NCBI GenBank assembly: GCA_964106645.2
Contig: OZ067044.1
Source of the DNA: Podarcis pityusensis
Taxonomy: Eukaryota
Strand: one strand, 5' to 3'
DNA: 64,000 nt
Below, piece by piece: positions 57 to 53,113 of the stretch; the first letter of the stretch is position 1; each line of letters begins with the position of its first letter. Made by a program: the position numbers and the translations under genes. A model generated the notes under the pieces. That model had not been told where the DNA came from. It made no database searches and saw only the letters and a list, made by a program, of their open reading frames with translations.

Positions 57-487
57 AGTTACCTTACAGGGGGCGGGTTCTTCTACAGGGCCATAGGTCT
101 CCCTACAGTAGAGGTGGGGAGGCATGTAGGAGACTGGTCCCCTGACGGTTAGCAACAAATAATGATCTTGACTGGGTTATGTTTTGTATATGTTATGAAT
201 TCAGGAACAGGAATCCTCTATGCTTGGCTGATCTGTGACCAATTTACCTCCTAGATTTGCTTGGTAGAATAATAAAATTCTACCATCTTTTCTTTTCATC
301 CAGCTACCAAAAAAATAAAAATATTTTTGTTTTAGATCTTTAGCATATCTTGGCAATTTTGTACCCTAACTGGTATTTATGGCAACCTAATTTAACATAT
401 GCATTTTTTAAATTGAAATTGGTTGGCCTATTAAGCACCCAGGAAAGTTTTACTGGACAGTTAAAGGTTGAAGGACAGAAAGATCAC

Positions 488-11324: not shown

Positions 11325-12300
11325 GTGATTGTTGGCATCCATCTGTCTTGAGAGACAATGGAAGAGTGCGTCTTCAGGGGTAAAGTGAAACTGTTGGAGA
11401 GTTACAGCACCTGCTGTGGCTGTTGAGACCAAAATGGGAGAGACATGTTTTGTTGCAGCTGGGCAGATCTTCAGTCGAGCACCAGGGAGAAGTATATGCC
11501 AAAGAGAGTTGGGGCAAGAACACAGCCCTGTTTTACACTGCTCTTTATAGGAAAGGCGTTTGAGGATGAACCATCATACTGGACAGGCATGCATGTTCTT
11601 GTGGAAGGCTACAATCATCTTGTGGAGCTTAGGTGGGCATCCTATTTTGTTGAGCAATGTGAAGAGTCCTTTTTAACTGACCACCAAGGTCAAAGGCTTT
11701 TGTCAGGTCTATGAAGGAGATGTACAAGGAGGATTTCTGCTCCTGGCATTTCTCCTGCAGCTGGTGCAATGAGAAAAACATGTCAACTGTTGACCTCTGA
11801 GCTCTAAAGCAACATTGTGACTCTGGATAGACTCTGTTGGTGAGAGACTGTAATCTGTTGAGAACTACAGGGGCAAAGATGGTTTCTACAGTATTCAGCA
11901 GGGAGATTCCATGATAGTTCTTACAATCATGGCAGTCACCTTTGTTCTTATAGAGGATCACAATCCTGGGGGTCATGAGAGGTGCATTATGTTGGAAGAA
12001 CTGAGGCTAGCTTTCAGCACTTCTGTTGAGATTCTGTCCTGTCCTGGGGCTTAACCTTATGCCTGAGAGTTGATGGCATTCTTCAGCTCATCAAGGAAGG
12101 GGGGAGCATCCAACTCTCCAAGACAAGCAGAGTCTGAATGCTGTCAATTGCTGTGCCAGAGACCATGTTTTCCTGCGAGTACAGTTCTTGATAGTGCTCT
12201 GGCAATCACTTCATCGGTTTGCTGCAGTCTGTGATGATCTCTATAGACAAGGTTTTTAGCAGTGCAGTTTTCCTGACAATCTAAAGGTTGTCTGCATGCC
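11325..12300 (-). mobile_element. Degraded RTE-clade LINE fragment (RT N-terminal part joined to 3' end, internal deletion)
   Basis: ORF 11629..11976 contains LYKNKGD..NYHGISLL..ESQCCFR..STVDMFFSL.QLQEKC.EQ..LYISFIDLTKAFD, which are non-LTR RT motifs, with frameshifts. Confidence 0.85.
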
Positions 12301-12479: not shown

Positions 12480-12825
12480 CAGTGGTGCCCCGCAAGACGA
12501 ATGCCTCACAAGACGGAAAACCCGCTAGACGAAAGGGTTTTCCGTTTTTGAGTTGCTTCGCAGGACGAATTTCCCTATGGGCTTGCTTCGCAAGACGAAA
12601 ATGTCTTGCGAGTCCTGAGATTTTTTTTCCGCACCCCCCCCTTTTTCTAAGCCGCTAAGCCGCTAATAGCCTTTTAGCAGCTAAGCCGCTAAGCCTTTAA
12701 TAGCCGCTAAACCGCTAATAGCGCTAATCCGCTAAGCCGCTAATAGGGTTGCTTCGCAAGACGAAAAAACCGCTAGACGAAGACACTTGCGGAACGGATT
12801 AATTTCGTCTTGCGAGGCACCACTG
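12480..12825. mobile_element. Tc1/mariner (Tigger/pogo-like) non-autonomous MITE
   Basis: TA|cagtggtgccccgcaagacgaa ... ttcgtcttgcgaggcaccactg|TA gives terminal inverted repeats with a TA duplication; CpG-rich. Confidence 0.9.
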
Positions 12826-17042: not shown

Positions 17043-17393
17043 TAAAGGTAAACGGACCCCTGACCATTAGGTCCAGTCGTGACCGACTCTGGGGTTGCGG
17101 TGCTCATCTCGCTTTATTGGCCGAGGCAGCCGGTGTACAGCTTCCGGGTCATGTGGCCAGCATGACTAAGCTGCTTCTGGTGAACCAGAGCAGCGCACAG
17201 AAACGCCATTTACCTTCCCGCTGGAGCGGTATCTATTTATCTACTTGCACTTGATGTGCTTTCGAACTGCTAGGTTGGCAGGAGCAGGGACCAAGCAACG
17301 GGAGCTCACCCCGTCGCAGGGATTCGAACCGCCGACCTTCTGATCGGCAAGTCCTAGGCTCTGTGGTTTAACCCACAGCGCCACCTGCATCCC
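17043..17393 (-). mobile_element. Full-length Sauria SINE with 13-nt target-site duplication, inserted in an older tRNA-SINE-like repeat (~16900-17430)
   Basis: tRNA-derived head with B box (ggttcgaatcc) and ACCTTT tail; TSD tctttggaggatg at 17030-17042 and 17394-17406. Confidence 0.93.
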
Positions 17394-18819
17394 TCTTTGG
17401 AGGATGAGCAAGATACAAATAAAATAACCAAATAGCCAGGTGTATACTTATGCCATTGAATTCATTGGTAACTTTACACAAGTGTGTAGTTCCCCAGATT
17501 AGTAAACAGTGCAAGGTAAACCTACTCCATGGTTAATATCTAATTACCAATTTGTAATCATGTTCCACCTTTTTATATGCTTCACTCAGAGTGATTTTTC
17601 AAATTAATGTAGTCATAATTCGGTTCTGCCTCAACAAACCCTTTGGAAAAAACCTAATCTGCACTTTCAGAATTCGAGTATATTATCTGTGATTTAGAGA
17701 TACATGTATGTTCAATTTGTATGCACATCAAAAACGATTGGAGCACCTTTCCCTCTCTTAGTAAACTCAAATCACATTTTACACCCCCTATTTTTTAAAA
17801 AGGGGCTCATGTTCTGCCCAGGAAAAAAACCCACTGTCCAGTTAACCATGATGTAACCTATGCATGCATACAAGACAATGATTAGGGTTATTCTGATCTG
17901 AATTTTGCTAGAGGTATTTACTTAATAAAAACTAAGCAAAAGAAAAACAACACTGAGAACAATTTGTACTCTGAGATGCATGCATAGCAGCAAGGTCGCG
18001 AGTTGCTTGGTAACCAGCAGGAAGCATATTAGTACTCAAAAGGATCAAAATTAATGAGTGATAAGCACTCATGTTATCAGTTTCAGCAGGGAACACCAAG
18101 GATTATCACTAATTTATATGGATCACAATTTTTTCCATTGACCCTGGCAGTTTCTTGGTATCTGCTTTATATTCTTTTTTTTTTTGTATAGAAATTTGAA
18201 TAGCAGCTTCCTAGAAGACAGTTACATGCCGATTTTCTATCTGCAAATAAATAGTATTAAACTGAAAATTGGTTAGGTGAGTTCACATTTTGAGCATCAT
18301 GTTTTGTTAGTTTTAAAGGGTTGCAAATTGTCGATAAGCGTAAGCAACAAAAGTAGCAGTAAAGAGGAAGGAAAGAGCTAGCTCAGGAGCCTTGATTTGT
18401 CTTTCACAACATATATTAATTTATTTACACTGTATGCATGCAGGCGAAGCCGGAATCTAGGCAACACCTGAAAATTAGAATGCTGCTTACCTGGGACTCC
18501 ATGGAGGTGGGGTTTGTGGCCTGGCCTGGCAGGAGCCTGGATCCGAGGCCTTCTTAGGCTACAGGTAGCCATTGAGGGATGCCAGCACCTCCCTCTGCAG
18601 CCATGTGGCATGCCCAGAGGCCTTGTTCAAGTGAGCCAGTCAGGAACGAGCTGAGGGGTAGGGCTGTGGACCTGACAACCCTAGTTTCCAGTCAAATCCA
18701 TCTAATATTAATAAATACTAGCTGCACGCAGCCACGTCAGCTCCAATCCTCGCTGGACTTCCAACCCACCTGCCCTGTTTATGGGTCCTGCCCATAGGTG
18801 TGCAGGCAGATAAGCTATA

Positions 18820-19384
18820 TAGATCAAGGGAAGTAATAGTGCCACTGTATTCTGCTCTGGTCAGACCTCATCTGGAGTACTGTGTCCAGTTCTGGGCACC
18901 ACAGTTCAAGAAGGACACTGACAAACTGGAACGTGTCCAGAGGAGGACAACCAAAATGGTCAAAGGCCTGGAAACGATGCCTTATGAGGAACGGCTAAGG
19001 GAGCTGGGCATGTTTAGCCTGGAGAAGAGGAGGTTAAGGGGTGATATGATAGCCATGTTCAAATATATAAAAGGATGTCACATAGAGGAGGGAGAAAGGT
19101 TGTTTTCTGCTGCTCCAGAGAAGCGGACACGCAGCAATGGATCCAAACTACAAGAAAGAAGATTCCACCTAAACATTAGGAAGAACTTCCTGACAGTAAG
19201 AGCTGTTCGACAGTGGAATTTGCTGCCAAGGAGTGTGGTGGAGTCTCCTTCTTTGGAGGTCTTTAAGCAGAGGCTTGACAACCATATGTCAGGAGTGCTC
19301 TGATGGTGTTTCCTGCTTGGCAGGGGGTAGGACTCGATGGCCCTTGTGGTCTCTTCCAACTCTATGATTCTATGATTCTATGAT
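18820..19384 (+). mobile_element. CR1 LINE 3' end, 5'-truncated, with open ORF2 C-terminus
   Basis: [31 protein letters not shown]...[22 protein letters not shown]; ends in an (ATTCTATG)n tail. Confidence 0.95.
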
Positions 19385-36747: not shown

Positions 36748-36873
36748 ACAGGTGCCTTTGCCAGGCAAGAATACATTTGAACGTGTTGATTGAATGATTG
36801 AACACATTGATTTGTTTTTCTTCTCCATTAATCAACACATTCAAATGTATTCTTGCCTGGCAAAGGCACCTGT
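36748..36873. repeat. 44-bp inverted repeat with 38-nt spacer
   Basis: Arms 36748-36791 and 36830-36873 are reverse complements with one mismatch. Confidence 0.92.
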
Positions 36874-42663: not shown

Positions 42664-42980
42664 GGTAAAAGAGGTAAAGGGACCCCTGACCATTAGGTCC
42701 AGTCGTGGCCGACTCTGGGGTTGCGGCGCTCATCTCGCTTTATTGGCCGAGGGAGCTGGCGTACAGCTTCCGGGTCATGTGGCCAGCATGACTAAGCCGC
42801 TTCTGGCGAACCAGAACAACGCACGGAAATGCCGTTTACGTTCCCACCGGAGTGGTACCTATTTGTCTACTTGCACTTTTGATGTGCTTTCGAACTGCTA
42901 GGTTGGCAGGAGCAGGGACCGAGCAACGAGAGCTCACCCCGTCGCAGGGATTCAAACCGCCGACCTTCTGATCAGCAAGT
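42664..42980 (-). mobile_element. Sauria SINE, slightly 5'-truncated
   Basis: Near-identical to 17043-17393 but lacks the first ~35 nt of the head. Confidence 0.92.
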
Positions 42981-44727: not shown

Positions 44728-44925
44728 CTCCACTTCACAGCCGTATTCTGAGCCATCTAGAAGGATTACTTTGCACTGCATATTTTTCGGTTTTTTGACA
44801 ATCTTTAGAGGAGATCTGGAAAGCTTGCTTGAGGATGATTTTTGAGAGAGCTTGTCGTCTTCAAACTGCTGGTATTCCAGTTGTTTTGCTGCTGCAGCAG
44901 CAAATTCGCGTTCTTTGTCACTGCC
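44728..44925 (-). CDS. EPB41L3: EPB41L3 exon, end of U1 and start of FERM-N (GSDKEREFAAAAAKQLEYQQ...MQCKVILLDGSEYGCEVE)
   Basis: 198 nt, tgtag acceptor, GTAAAT donor, phase 0/0. Confidence 0.96.
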
Positions 44926-47214: not shown

Positions 47215-47816
47215 TATATAATCACAGTCATTGCTGTCTGCCTCCTTTGTTTCCTTTCCCATTAACAACATTCTAATGTGATACACCTTGTTTATGTCCA
47301 AAAAGCAATGCTTTATTAAAGAGGGGGAAAGCCTCAGGGCTGAGAATTTTTTCAGTGTTGACACAACTGAAAGTAGTTTAAATGTAGTCATTTTGTAAGT
47401 ACCAGGCCTTAATGGATGTAAGGTTTTGTTAGTTTCAAACATCACTCAACCCCAAATAAAATGGGATTTCAACAGGTGTTAAAGTGGAAATGTGTTGCCA
47501 AACTCTTCAAAATGTGCAGTTATCTAACACTGTGATGAATAGCGAAAGGTCCCCCCCCCTTTTAACAATGGCAATAGGTTTTAAAAATTAAGCCCAGCAT
47601 GTAAGACAATCTGACAAAAATTACAAAAATATTATATGACTGAAATTGAGAGAGGGGAGTAGTATCTAACCTGTCCCCTCCATCCCCAGTAGATCACCAA
47701 TCAGTGTGCAAGAGTACTGTTTAATCAGACTGAAATCTGTGTCTAAGTAAAGTTATGCATTGGCTTTCTAGTGTATGTTAAGACTTTTAAAGAAATTATC
47801 CAAGTTCTGATCTTAC

Positions 47817-48035
47817 CGGTTCCTTTTTCACAGGAGTGCTGTGAGCTGCAACACCAGAAAATTGTTCTAATGCATTCTGGTGCTCTTCCCTCAGCTGCTG
47901 TTGCTGTTGCTGTTGTTGTTGTTGCTGCTGCTGTCCTTGGGCCCCTGTCCCACCTGATCCTTGTTGACCCGAAGCTTCTTTCTGCTCTTGATCCTGATCC
48001 TTTGATTCAGAATCTGATCCAGATTCTGTAGTCAT
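47817..48035 (-). CDS. EPB41L3: EPB41L3 first coding exon (exon 47817-48046 including 11 nt 5'UTR); U1 region with 13-Gln tract
   Basis: Acceptor AG at 48048-48047, accATG context, 73 codons MTTESGSDSESK...HSTPVKKEP, donor GTAAGA, phase 0. Confidence 0.95.
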
Positions 48036-50344
48036 GGTTGATTATTCTACAACACAAATAAAACTATTCAGTATCATAAAAAAATCGAAAGAAGGCAAAA
48101 ACTGAATTGACAAACAAGTAAGATGGTTTTAAGTGTGGGTGGCAAAGTTAAGACCATTTGTGGGTGACGGGGAGTCACACCCACCCACCTATCTCTTCAC
48201 ACAAGGGGATTTTTTTATTAGTTGTCTTCACACCTGCTCTCCTGTCCCCTCACCACACTTAGATGGTCTGAATTTGTTTGAATGCAGATTCTTCGTAACT
48301 CTGGTCACTGAATCCAGCTACCAGAACTAGTCCTACCTAGGGACTTGTTTAAGATTGTAGAGGACTATAAACCATTTGTCAGATAACTAATCACCCTTTG
48401 TCCAACTCTTCCAACAGAATCCCAAGGAAATAAAATTGAAAACATCCTGTTCCTGCTTGGCGGCTCAATGCAAAATCTCTGTGCGACTCAGGAATATCAC
48501 AAAAATAAGGGTCTCACCATGGCCTGGCTGTAGCCCATGACACACCTTTTAAGCATTTAGACAATTTTAAAACTCAAGAGTAAAAGTTTTCAAATGAATA
48601 AATGCAGCATTGTCACAATTTGAATCTATCAAAAACAAAAGTATGACCGTAACGATCTGATTTTGTTAATCACCATGTAATTTGCCTTAAATCTGGTAGC
48701 CATAATAATTTATTTAATTGAGTAACTATGCAATTAACAGAGGGGAAATACTCCTTTAAAAAGAAAATCAGTATTTTTGCTGATAAGGACCTGTCCACTA
48801 CCTACTGCTATGTTCGCATTGTGATGTTCTTCACTAATCATCAATTATCACTGTAGGGGTCACTTTAGTAATGACTCAAAATCATCACTTAGATGGCCCA
48901 CCTCAAACTCTTCCCAATTAAATATATTGTATGGGGTTGCCTATCTTCAGAAGGGTGGACTAAAAGTATAACAAATTTTAACTATGGTTTAATCATGTGA
49001 TGGCTGAACCAGGCCACTGTATGAAAGTCTAGTATTATAATTTAGTAAAACAGCCCTAGTAAAAATAACAAAATCCATTCTTGCAATCCTACTGAAAAGT
49101 TATCTATGGAAGTTACAGAGCAAATCGTACATAAAAAAGTTTATGAAAATAGGTTTGATGTATTTATTTAACAAAATTTATATATCACTTGATTGTAACA
49201 AAAACCTCTACACACTTTACAAAAATATAAAATAAAAACATTTAAAATATAAATTAAAAAAGTAAAACAGGTTTTTTTAAATGATAAAAGTGTGCGGGGG
49301 TGGGGTGGGGGTGTGTAGCCTAAAATTTGTAGTCTGCAAATAAACAACAAAGGAAAAGAAACTGGAAACACGGGGTGCAAATTCTCACATGAAGTTTATT
49401 GCAACATTTCTTTTTTAAGGAAACAGCAATAATAAACAGTGTAACTTATTGACTTCACTCCATACCAAAAACAAAAAGAGTATTTGTGAAAGGCATTATT
49501 ATAGCCAGATAGCTCTGGAAACCGAATACAAATGAACAATAAATATTTCATCAAGCAATTAAGGAGGAAAGAAGGGTTCACTAAAATGGCTCATTACAAT
49601 CCTCAATAGACTCACTTTCAAAAAAACCATTCAGGTCTAATCTCCTTCTTTTCTGACCTTTTTTTTTAAAAAAAGTATTTTTCTTCTGATTTCCTTGCTG
49701 AGCATTTGCTTTCTTCTTTTCCCTCTGATTGATGACTACAGTGCACTTTCTGTAAAGGCTTCACTGGGATAGTTCAGCTTATTGCCTCATCACTTTTTTG
49801 TTGGAGAAACATCATTAGTACAACCTATTGCTTCTATAGTTGCTGTAAAGTGCCTTGTTTACAAGGGGTGCATGCACACATATTATTCACCATTTAAAAG
49901 CTTGATTAATTGAATGCTTTAAAAGACAATATGTGTTTGAGACAGAAGTTCATCAGCAATTTGTCCCAGCTATGCACAAAGTACTGTAATTCTCTGTCTT
50001 TTCTCTAGTATGGAACATGTAGAAATATCATCAGTGTATGATCAAGATTTTGCCCCTGAACTAAAATGTGACCTGACAACTACATAGCTGGTAATTATAA
50101 ATCACTAACGTTTCTTAAATTTCATATTTATTATGCTTGAGTTGCTTACATCTTACTGTATCCTGGAGAAGAGCATGGGTGACAGTAGAAATCCTCCCAG
50201 GGGACAAGGATATATACTGCATTATTTTGTGAGTTTATTAAAAGCATGCAAGATCTGCACGCCTGCCTAGCCAGCATGAGGTTACCTGTATATTTCATTT
50301 CCCCCAATACTATCACAAGCCCCTGAAATGAGTCTAAGATGTCT

Positions 50345-50816
50345 TGCTGTTGTTTAGTCGTGTCCGACTCTTCGTGACCCCATGGACCAGAGCACGCCAG
50401 GCACTCCTGTCTTCCACTGCCTCCCGCAGTTTGGTCAGACTCATTCTGGTAGCTTTGAGAACACTGTCCAACCATCTCGTCCTCTGCCGTCCCCTTCTTC
50501 TTGTGCCCTCAATCTTTCCCAACATCAGGGTCTTTTCCAGGGAGTCTTCTCTTCTCATGAGGTGGCCAAAGTCTTGGAGCCTCAGCTTCATGATCTGTCC
50601 TTCCAGTGAGCACTCAGGGCTGATTTCCTTAAGAATGGATAGGTTTGATCTTCTTGCAGTCCATGTGACTCTCAAGAGTCTCTTCCAGCACCATAATTCA
50701 AAAGCATCAATTCTTTGGCGATCAGCCTTCTTTATGGTCCAGCTCTCACTTCCATACATCACTACTGGGAAAACCATAGCTTTGACTATATGGACCTTTG
50801 TCGGCAAGGTGATGTA
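50345..50816 (-). mobile_element. BovB (RTE) LINE 3' end, 5'-truncated, with 12-nt TSD
   Basis: ITLPTKVHIVKAMVFPVVMYGSESWTIKKA...AWRALVHGVTKSRTRL; TSD tctaagatgtct at 50333-50344 and 50817-50828. Confidence 0.95.
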
Positions 50817-51672
50817 TCTAAGATGTCTAGAATGCTTCAATATCCTATTCTGTTTTTTCTATGTGGATCATATTGAACTGTGCTAAAACATGCAACAGGA
50901 ATCAAAATGTCTATATTTTAATAATATAGTAAATTGGGCCCAAATTTTCAAGAAATATCCACATGGTTCAGTGATACAAGAATATAGAAAAGGCAACAGG
51001 AAGCAAAAAAAAAATACAATCTATGGGCAACTGCTTATATGTATTGTTTTTAAAGCGATATAAAATAAAAACATTCGAACACAATTTACATTAATGGCCG
51101 CTCGGTCACTGGTGTAAATTCTGTAAAGATCTTAGGCAACACAACTAACATTTAATCAAATCAATAGTTTTTAACTATAAGAATTTATGGATCTCACGAC
51201 ACCCATTTTCTGTTCATGATCATATTATGCTCATTAGTGCTGTCATATATTCAGTTTACTTTAAAATAATCAACAGTAAAATGCCAACAGAAACCAGAAT
51301 GATGTGTCTTCAAGAGACTTAATTTATTTTTGCATTGGTTCTTTGTTCTACACATTGACTACTACAGCACATACGAAAATACCCTTACTTTATGCAAATG
51401 AGGTTATTTAAGCATTGCCTTTTAGTTTTTCTCATCTAGGTAGATATGTTTCTGTGAATGTCTCTCTATGCTCAACATCTAAATGTGAATGAGACTGCCT
51501 CACACTTTTAAAATGGTTATCCTAAACTTAACATATGCATACTAATAGGCTCCAACTCCTAGGGGCCAAGGTCCTTTTGCCCCCCCAATTGAATATTTTA
51601 GGGGGCTCCCTCCCCCCAAAGTTGTGCATTTGCCACATCTTGTGATAGATTATGTGGGGTGGGGCTTACATA

Positions 51673-51809
51673 AAGGTAAAGGTACCCCTGCCCGTACGGG
51701 CCAGTCGTGTCCGACTCTAGGGTTGTGTGCCCATCTCACTTAAGAGGCTGGGGGCCAGCACTGTCCGCAGACACTTCCGGGTCACGTGGCCAGCGTGACA
51801 AGCTGCATC
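51673..51809 (-). mobile_element. 5'-truncated Sauria SINE (second subfamily) nested in an older MITE-like repeat (~51546-51857)
   Basis: ACCTTT tail; TSD tggggcttacata at 51660-51672 and 51810-51822. An uninterrupted relative of the host element lies at about 63500-63670. Confidence 0.88.
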
Positions 51810-51939
51810 TGGGGCTTACATACCCCTCCCCATATTGTATTCAAGTTGGAAACCCTGCTAGCAATTAGAAAAACAGTATATATTAAAATAAAAAAAATCC
51901 TTCCAGTAGCACCTTTAAGACCAACTAAGTTAGTTCTTG

Positions 51940-51977
51940 GTATGAGCTTTCGTGTGCAAGCACACTTCTTCAGATAC
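51940..51977 (-). ncRNA. Minimal type I hammerhead ribozyme motif, mirror copy, sense to EPB41L3 pre-mRNA
   Basis: Exact reverse complement of 52009-52046. Confidence 0.75.
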
Positions 51978-52008
51978 ACTGAAACAGAAGTTGCCAGATC
52001 CTTTCAGT

Positions 52009-52046
52009 GTATCTGAAGAAGTGTGCTTGCACACGAAAGCTCATAC
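52009..52046 (+). ncRNA. Minimal type I hammerhead ribozyme motif
   Basis: GUAU-CUGAAGA-A-GUGUGC-UU-GCACAC-GAAA-GC-UC^AUAC: stem I GUAU/AUAC, conserved CUGANGA and GAAA, stem II hairpin, palindromic AGCU stem III. Confidence 0.75.
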
Positions 52047-53113
52047 CAAGAACTAACTTAGTTGGTCTTAAAGGTGCTACTGGAAGGTTTTTTTTTATTT
52101 TGACTATGGCAGACCAACACGGCTACCTATCTGTAACTGGAAGTATATATTAAGGCAGCCTTAATATTGAACCGTGACACTGGGCAGAGATTTTTAACAA
52201 TTCCCTCTACACTGAGGGGATTTTTTAAAAATTTACACTGGCCACAGAAACACAGTGCCAGCAGACCTTCAAAACACACATGCCCACATTAATGCATAAC
52301 AACAGCTGTTTCCTATATATGATTAGCCTATTTTTGGGGGGAATCCCTTTTTAAAAATCATTGAAACCATTTGCGAAAAATGGACATTTGAATAGAAGCC
52401 TTCATTTCAAAATTGTAAATGCCATTCTTATTAATATCAGGGCTTAAGTTTAAATTTGCAACTACTCAAACATTTTCTCCCAAAAATGAACTACGATCTC
52501 CTAAAAATGGAGTTTGTGATCCTTCTTTGTGCTAGGTGTAACATACAAACAAAGAGTAAAAGGCAAAAGTAGGGCACAAAGACAGATGTTCTGTGCCATC
52601 AAGCATCCATCACAGTGGTTGAACAGAAGATTAAATCTTAGGTTATTTTCCACATTAAGGGGAAAAATCCTTTTGAGTTTAACCATGAACACTGGTCTCT
52701 CTTCAAAGTCATACAGCTTGACCCTGAAAACATCTTCCAGGTGCACCTTGATCAATTGCATATGTTTCCAGGATTGAACTAGCAGCTGCAACCACAATCA
52801 GTTTCAACTGAACACTGACTGGAGTAAGCAAAGTAAACAAACCCTAACTTTTACTCTTAGTCATCAAAAGAACTGTTTAAAGAATTCTCTCCTCCCCCAC
52901 AAATCATCCCTTTTTGTACCTACTGGGTTATCCTAATTTATGTTCCAATTTAGTACACACACTACAATATGATCCTTGATGTCTGCTTGCTTTCGTTTAA
53001 ACTTTGTAATTGTTTGGGATAAAAAATATTAAACTCCTGATAATAGACTCGTCTTCAATTCATGGGTCAGATCCTGACTAATGATAATAGTAGCACTACT
53101 GCCATATGAATGC

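Follow-up and report, generated by a model that had tools for sequence, protein, structure and literature searches.

We concluded, with a probability of roughly 70%, that the insertion found in the first intron of EPB41L3 is a dead-end copy of a young and abundant Penelope-like element (PLE), likely Neptune, which was primed from two DNA ends and whose two cDNAs were joined at microhomology; a hairpin is predicted to lock its ribozyme and prevent cleavage. The insertion lies in a 64,000-nt stretch of Podarcis pityusensis DNA, hereafter the window. It is an ordinary example of a known insertion type, one among hundreds, and its architecture (inverted pLTR, one-sided tail, duplication) has already been published, as PMC3846280 and PMC8557442 describe.

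Structure of the insertion

A sequence-only reading of the window had described a 12-nt duplication around a 255-nt insertion with two perfectly complementary 86-nt arms, and its coordinates held. The direct repeat (AGTATATATTAA) was found at 51875-51886 and 52142-52153, flanking 255 nt. The arms (51885-51984 and 52002-52101) were 100 nt each and 99% complementary, with a single mismatch at 51898/52088 and perfect complementarity over 86 nt at 51899-51984. The minus strand of the insertion folded at -184.7 kcal/mol (z = -25.7, 200 shuffles). Each arm read GUAU-CUGAAGA-A-GUGUGC-UU-GCACAC-GAAA-GC-UC-AUAC, and the ribozyme cuts were predicted after 52042 on the plus strand and after 51944 on the minus strand.

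The insertion had also been divided into two arms, a spacer, and a unique tail. The arms stood, but the other two parts did not. With element positions numbered from the A of the predicted initiator (position 0, window 52006), the 17-nt ‘spacer’ matched element positions -21..-5 exactly, in reverse complement; thus, the inverted arm is simply longer and there is no separate spacer. The ‘tail’ was the 40-nt tail common to the element family, with the ORF start codon inside it at 52106. The features are as follows.

51875..51886 (+): left copy of the target-site duplication, 12 nt; a direct repeat, single-copy at the empty site of organism B
51887..52001 (-): inverted tailless arm, element -21 to +93; both ends show 2-nt microhomology
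51940..51977 (-): minimal type I hammerhead motif in sense orientation relative to EPB41L3 pre-mRNA; cleavage predicted between 51944 and 51943 (sequence and fold constraint)
51985..52001 (-): hairpin loop, element -21..-5, in the inverted arm only; junction unique in the genome
52002..52141 (+): forward arm including the tail, element -4 to +135
52009..52046 (+): second minimal type I hammerhead motif, with cleavage predicted after 52042 (sequence and 45-nt fold)
52102..52141 (+): Penelope-type tail of about 40 nt, containing a small AC-rich stem-loop and, at 52106, the start codon of the ORF
52142..52153 (+): right copy of the target-site duplication (direct repeat; empty site in organism B)
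47816..48048 (-): first coding exon of EPB41L3, from spliced contigs; the insertion is 3.8 kb upstream, in the first intron

Other repeats were seen in the window. A second inverted repeat at 36748-36873 (44-nt arms, 98% complementary, 38-nt spacer) was unrelated in sequence to the insertion and is perhaps a small DNA-transposon derivative. An internally repetitive element built of short repeated words occupied 12486-12781. SINE copies, which we take to be Sauria-type, were found at 51671-51812, 17046-17352, 42672-42980, and 1-54, one of them 60 nt from the insertion. Fragments at 18722-19303, and at 11629-12006 and 50146-50886, presumably derive from CR1 and RTE LINE proteins, respectively. 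About 60 kb past the window end, locus L124 (500-6500) held LTR-retrotransposon-like gag/pol frames in pieces.

Host gene

The exon at 44740-44925 had its best match in Band 4.1-like protein 3, a weak one (E 0.0045, 17 aa). Presumed-RNA contigs of a related organism spliced this exon to 47816-48048, and spliced the latter to exons about 24 kb and about 68 kb upstream, across the insertion. One upstream exon, at window-equivalent 71,967, showed an exact 30-nt match and a GT donor (one of four runs); the second was at about 116,000 (two of four runs). Both were at or beside CpG islands. Because splicing crosses the insertion and the gene is on the minus strand, the first intron contains the insertion, and transcription reaches the antisense arm before the other, as had been proposed. 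Within the first coding exon, a glutamine-rich CAG/CAA repeat (47887-47939) differed in length in the related-organism contigs.

The element family and its full-length parent

The 38-nt motif had 3,892 exact copies genome-wide, whereas a reversed control gave no matches. At least 639 loci carried two motifs back to back within 34 nt (tight palindromes), and the site in the window, first regarded as special, is just one of the 639. The window copy itself is non-coding. A full-length copy was found at locus L031 (2176-5470), with the order duplication, inverted pLTR, pLTR, 910-aa ORF, pLTR, tail, duplication. Its uninterrupted ORF matched RVT_1 (E 2.4e-12) and GIY-YIG (E 2.3e-4; 21.9 bits, slightly below the Pfam cut-off of 22.6), and contained DKG, YIDD, and CxxC-YIG motifs, with RT followed by GIY-YIG in a single frame. 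Together, this ORF, the direct and inverted pLTRs with a one-sided tail, and the short duplication are those of an EN+ Penelope-like element, and they support the Penelope-like origin suggested earlier. A CX4CXXC linker at residue 770, before GIY-YIG, points to Neptune: a CX2-5CxxC linker in this place is characteristic of Neptune and shared with Nematis (PMC8557442). Judged from sequence, the family likely belongs to the Neptune clade.

Two further observations concern full-length units. The 5' repeat of L031 begins at -10 and hence lacks the TATA motif. On contig C1, some matches were exactly 3,010 nt apart, which points to tandem full-length units.

Insertion ends across copies

We took the first 100 matches of the 38-nt motif on contig C1 (first 42 Mb), a sample that selects loci with one exact motif on one contig of one genome. 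Six of these matches were not retrieved, L058/L059 and L114 were complex or gap-spanning, and L082 ran off its locus; L003 (also run off its locus, from another copy set) and one old fragment in L057 were left out as well. The sample yielded 38 two-armed inverted events and 27 single-orientation events.

In 36 of the 38 two-armed events one end fell at +75..+101 and the other at +121..+148, and in none were the two ends alike. Over all sets, including separately selected copies, 71 of 73 two-armed copies had the tail at one end only. One-armed events were divided between 14 tailed and 12 short ends, and relative to this split the one-short-one-tailed asymmetry was highly significant (p about 1e-11). 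Resolved ends peaked at +92..+97 and +127..+137. Microhomology with the target averaged 1.66 nt, compared with 0.47 nt in 2,000 permutations (116 of 136 ends resolved). A target-site duplication flanked 71 of the 73 two-armed copies and was 12-13 nt long in 50 of them.

These ends suggested asymmetric double priming, in which one protein dimer would hold a single RNA so that each of the two cut DNA ends sits at a different edge of the tail, and the trailing enzyme would copy again what the leading one had already copied. We lean towards this model in its full form, at somewhat better than even odds. The principal alternative is fold-back or self-priming, in which one cDNA or antisense RNA snaps back and copies itself into the inverted arm, as has been proposed for rotifer Penelope elements (PMC3846280). 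Arm-to-arm variation agrees with such self-copying, in that arms nearly always share variants: common minor variants were shared 61 times and discordant three times, and 9 of 10 informative long-armed events were concordant (p about 0.015). The same sharing is expected under double priming when both ends usually copy one RNA. The long-armed copies L037, L050, L081, and L083 also end within 30 nt of each other.

Arm lengths favored priming from both ends. Among 33 simple events, the tailless arm extended further upstream in 17, the tailed arm did so in 6, and the arms were within 7 nt of each other in 10; the last two classes (6/33 and 10/33) also fit fold-back. In the first class of 17, as in the window copy, it is the tailless arm that contributes the loop, which speaks against fold-back there because a copy of a tailless arm cannot gain a tail. 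One-armed copies ended at the same two sites, a further point against fold-back. Finally, copy L090 (940-1467) had arms of two haplotypes, differing at two linked diagnostic sites (-95, -82), although this mosaic could be due to later gene conversion. The end asymmetry, the longer tailless arms, and the mosaic thus argue for priming from both cut ends and against fold-back, which we consider improbable as the general mechanism. In L109 and L113 the second end carried nothing but the tail, a further argument against fold-back, and L096 was a non-overlapping inversion.

The probable run-off point and the RNA template

Exact matches numbered 4,538 at +10, 3,892 at +3, 2,024 at -4, and 1,943 at -11, so that the losses per 7-nt step from +10 to -11 were 14%, 48%, and 4%. 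The sharp drop coincided with a predicted transcription start, 3 nt before the ribozyme, that combines TATATA at -30 with an initiator-like TCAGT at 0. On this sequence evidence, the drop would be the point at which reverse transcriptase reaches the 5' end of the RNA made from the element itself and runs off.

Truncated arms stopped mostly at +1 to +3, not 0, and the sequence there can also be read as a 3' splice site. The pile-up at 0..+3 might then mark the end of a pLTR intron, as in D. virilis Penelope, instead of a transcription start. A pyrimidine run and CAG do end at +1, an intron is reported to end at helix I in D. virilis (PMC4209133), and the D. virilis element is described as having a TATA-less internal promoter (PMC2377424). 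However, truncated arms were preceded by no fixed upstream exon sequence (GT 17, CT 9, AT 6, AA 6, others), most arms retained the G that splicing would remove, and TATATA stands at the usual distance. We therefore regard the splice-site interpretation as unlikely and transcript run-off as the better explanation of the pile-up.

Cleaved RNA was rejected as the main template. Arms starting near the ribozyme cut (+37) made up at most 3 of the 100 listed (+34, +35, and about +41, by eye), none of the 100 listed started exactly at +37, and 0 of 96 arm 5' ends fell at +31..+45 in a sample that requires one intact motif. The rarity of ends at +37 agrees with the uncut RNA template used in vitro (PMC11167929). 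The window arms reach -23 and -4, and their template was likely the downstream repeat of a longer transcript.

Arm junctions

The arm junction of the window copy occurred once in the 1.5 Gb genome. Junctions differed among the 65 copies scored, many carrying short inserts copied from nearby sequence, and arm lengths formed a continuum up to the full element. These results bear on whether a non-autonomous palindromic element (MITE- or retrozyme-like) has been copied as a unit from a master palindrome. Although such a unit could explain 639 similar short palindromes, and some simple 5-8 nt junctions do recur among those listed, the unique window junction, the varied junctions with no fixed shared interior, and the continuum of arm lengths make it very improbable. 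A MITE or other palindromic non-autonomous unit was accordingly rejected for lack of a fixed internal sequence, and a non-LTR retrozyme was rejected because the insertion is a single inverted pair instead of a tandem direct array.

Tandem pieces were seen at a few loci. An extra piece from +1 to +179..185 was present at three independent loci (L020 1607-1791, L074 1336-1518, L101 1035-1213), which suggests a jump of the enzyme, once it has run off the 5' end of the RNA, to a preferred site near +180 or to the end of a short RNA of about 185 nt. In L047 (1500-1736) a +3..+75 piece occurred twice in tandem ahead of the final arm, which points to repeated template jumps and may be the seed of a retrozyme-like array.

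Hammerhead motifs and the predicted hairpin in the host transcript

Each arm contained, as had been claimed, a minimal type I hammerhead motif: the core CUGANGA / GAAA / UH, an extra nucleotide after A9, the G10.1-C11.1 pair, and a palindromic 15.2-16.2 could all be read in the sequence, and a 45-nt piece was predicted to fold with stems I and II. Common variants of the motif within the family affect loop II and position 17. The suggested check against Rfam gave no hammerhead family at E <= 10 with either 3 kb or 76 nt as the query; because the motif has no proper helix III, this null does not refute the minimal form. Matches to MIR1222 and mir-85 were below gathering scores and were taken as chance matches of a long hairpin. 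When two 45-nt motifs were co-folded, they dimerized through helix II and did not form an active double hammerhead, a result that is silent on activity. For RNA starting at element position 0 the best structure had both hammerhead stems, and for RNA starting at -21 it did not.

In pre-mRNA orientation the insert folded at -182.1 kcal/mol when free and at -112.6 kcal/mol with the ribozyme enforced. That is, the hairpin in the host transcript is predicted to be favored by about 70 kcal/mol, which supports the earlier suggestion that it would lock the ribozyme off. A hairpin of such length is a plausible ADAR substrate. Each EPB41L3 transcript carries a single sense hammerhead motif. Given the favored hairpin, this single copy, and the inactivity of a single minimal motif in PMC4209133, cleavage of EPB41L3 RNA is unlikely. 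A pyrimidine run with CAG, acceptor-like and sense to EPB41L3, was also seen at the hairpin loop (window 51985-52006; minus strand 52001-51979), where it is predicted to be partly masked. An active or co-opted ribozyme that cuts or regulates EPB41L3 pre-mRNA has hardly any likelihood in our view: the core is intact and sense to the gene, as is the acceptor-like motif, but the predicted fold gap, the lone sense copy (without cleavage as a lone motif in PMC4209133), and the empty site of a close relative all stand against it.

The empty site and the age of the insertion

In one contig of organism B, a related organism, 51874 was followed directly by 52142 and the repeat occurred once; the right flank of this contig differed at 5 of 659 nt. 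This is the empty site that had been sought, with a lone repeat copy and no insert. Contigs from two organism A runs, belonging to two studies, continued unbroken from the tail into the right flank, and the palindrome center was spanned by none of the contigs listed. The empty-site contig and the tail-flank junctions in both runs indicated that the palindrome is not an assembly artefact.

The insertion had also been called very young and possibly polymorphic. Its recent origin is supported to the extent that it probably postdates the split of A and B, but perfect arms are no sign of unusual youth: comparing the arms of two-armed copies over the overlap scored gave 25 differences in 8,090 positions, and zero in 48 of 64 copies. 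Polymorphism received no support, since the junction was present in two of two organism A data sets, although the assembly itself may derive from one of them. The other loop-II variant made up more than 98% of the depth in organism B and about 60% in A, and the subfamily of the window thus appears to have expanded in organism A.

Proposed integration pathway

The mechanism that we infer from the finished insertions of one genome would proceed in the following order. A staggered break would produce the target duplication, the 12-13 nt pattern itself being observed in 50 of 73 two-armed copies. One DNA end would then prime at the beginning of the tail and the other at its end, each with 1-3 nt of target pairing; here too the pattern is observed, and the priming is our interpretation of it. 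Both ends would usually copy the same RNA and occasionally two RNAs, the tail-primed enzyme lagging behind the other. About half of the arms would run off the RNA 5' end at the predicted TATA/initiator start. Host end-joining would fuse the cDNA ends, through 2-nt microhomology in the window copy and with short inserts elsewhere. The resulting host transcript is predicted to form a hairpin of about 98 bp with one sense ribozyme.

Comparison with known systems

In LINE-1 twin priming, a single RNA is primed from both target ends, and microhomology joins the resulting cDNAs as non-overlapping pieces. Copies L096, L109, and L113 resemble this outcome; in the palindromic copies of the present family the pieces overlap instead, and the second start lies at a fixed position. 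A search of the open-access literature found no paper stating a twin- or double-priming model for PLE inverted repeats.

The closest biochemical parallel is the Anolis Poseidon protein (PAc), which cuts and extends both strands in vitro from two start sites bounding the tail (PMC11167929), and this fits double priming. Further likenesses are a ribozyme near the ORF start and the uncut RNA template. That study concerned Poseidon, not Neptune, and reported neither a start-site difference between strands nor homology where priming occurs; it leaves inverted insertions untreated. In contrast, the present family has a Neptune-type CX4CXXC linker, an ORF that starts 60 nt after the ribozyme and not inside it, and 1-3 nt of microhomology at the priming sites.

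Endonuclease-bearing PLEs, as described in PMC3846280 and PMC8557442, share the head-to-head inverted pLTR, the one-sided 30-40 bp tail, the short duplication, TATA- and initiator-like motifs in the pLTR, and a single RT + GIY-YIG ORF. Relative to them, the present family mass-produces the shortest form (639 tight palindromes) and has duplications of mostly 12-13 nt, and its insertion ends speak against self-priming as suggested in that work. The minimal type I hammerheads of animal PLEs (PMC4209133) likewise have a short helix I, a long helix II, an extra nucleotide after position 9, the G10.1-C11.1 pair, and a palindromic remnant of helix III. Opposite-strand motif pairs 100-700 bp apart were already noted in that paper, where a single minimal motif did not cleave; the two putative ribozyme motifs described here are complementary and just 31 nt apart. 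Non-LTR retrozymes (bioRxiv 10.64898/2026.07.22.740005) are also short hammerhead-bearing derivatives of PLE pLTRs, but they are tandem direct arrays, unlike the single inverted pair with its duplication in the window.

Implications

The insertion in EPB41L3 is likely a passenger, at what is most likely a neutral locus. The interest of the family is in its integration: how PLEs come by their inverted repeats and one-sided tails is, according to PMC8557442, unresolved, and a young family that combines an intact ORF with thousands of near-identical copies is well suited to testing it. The strict one-short-one-tailed rule, the tail-only ends, the mosaic, and the sharp run-off yield predictions that can be tested in the in vitro system of PMC11167929. 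If asymmetric double priming is correct, every two-armed insertion would have exactly one tailed end. Because copying would start 95-135 nt from the promoter, run-off would mass-produce ribozyme palindromes that map the transcription start site, and hundreds of near-perfect hairpins would have been put into the genome in this way.
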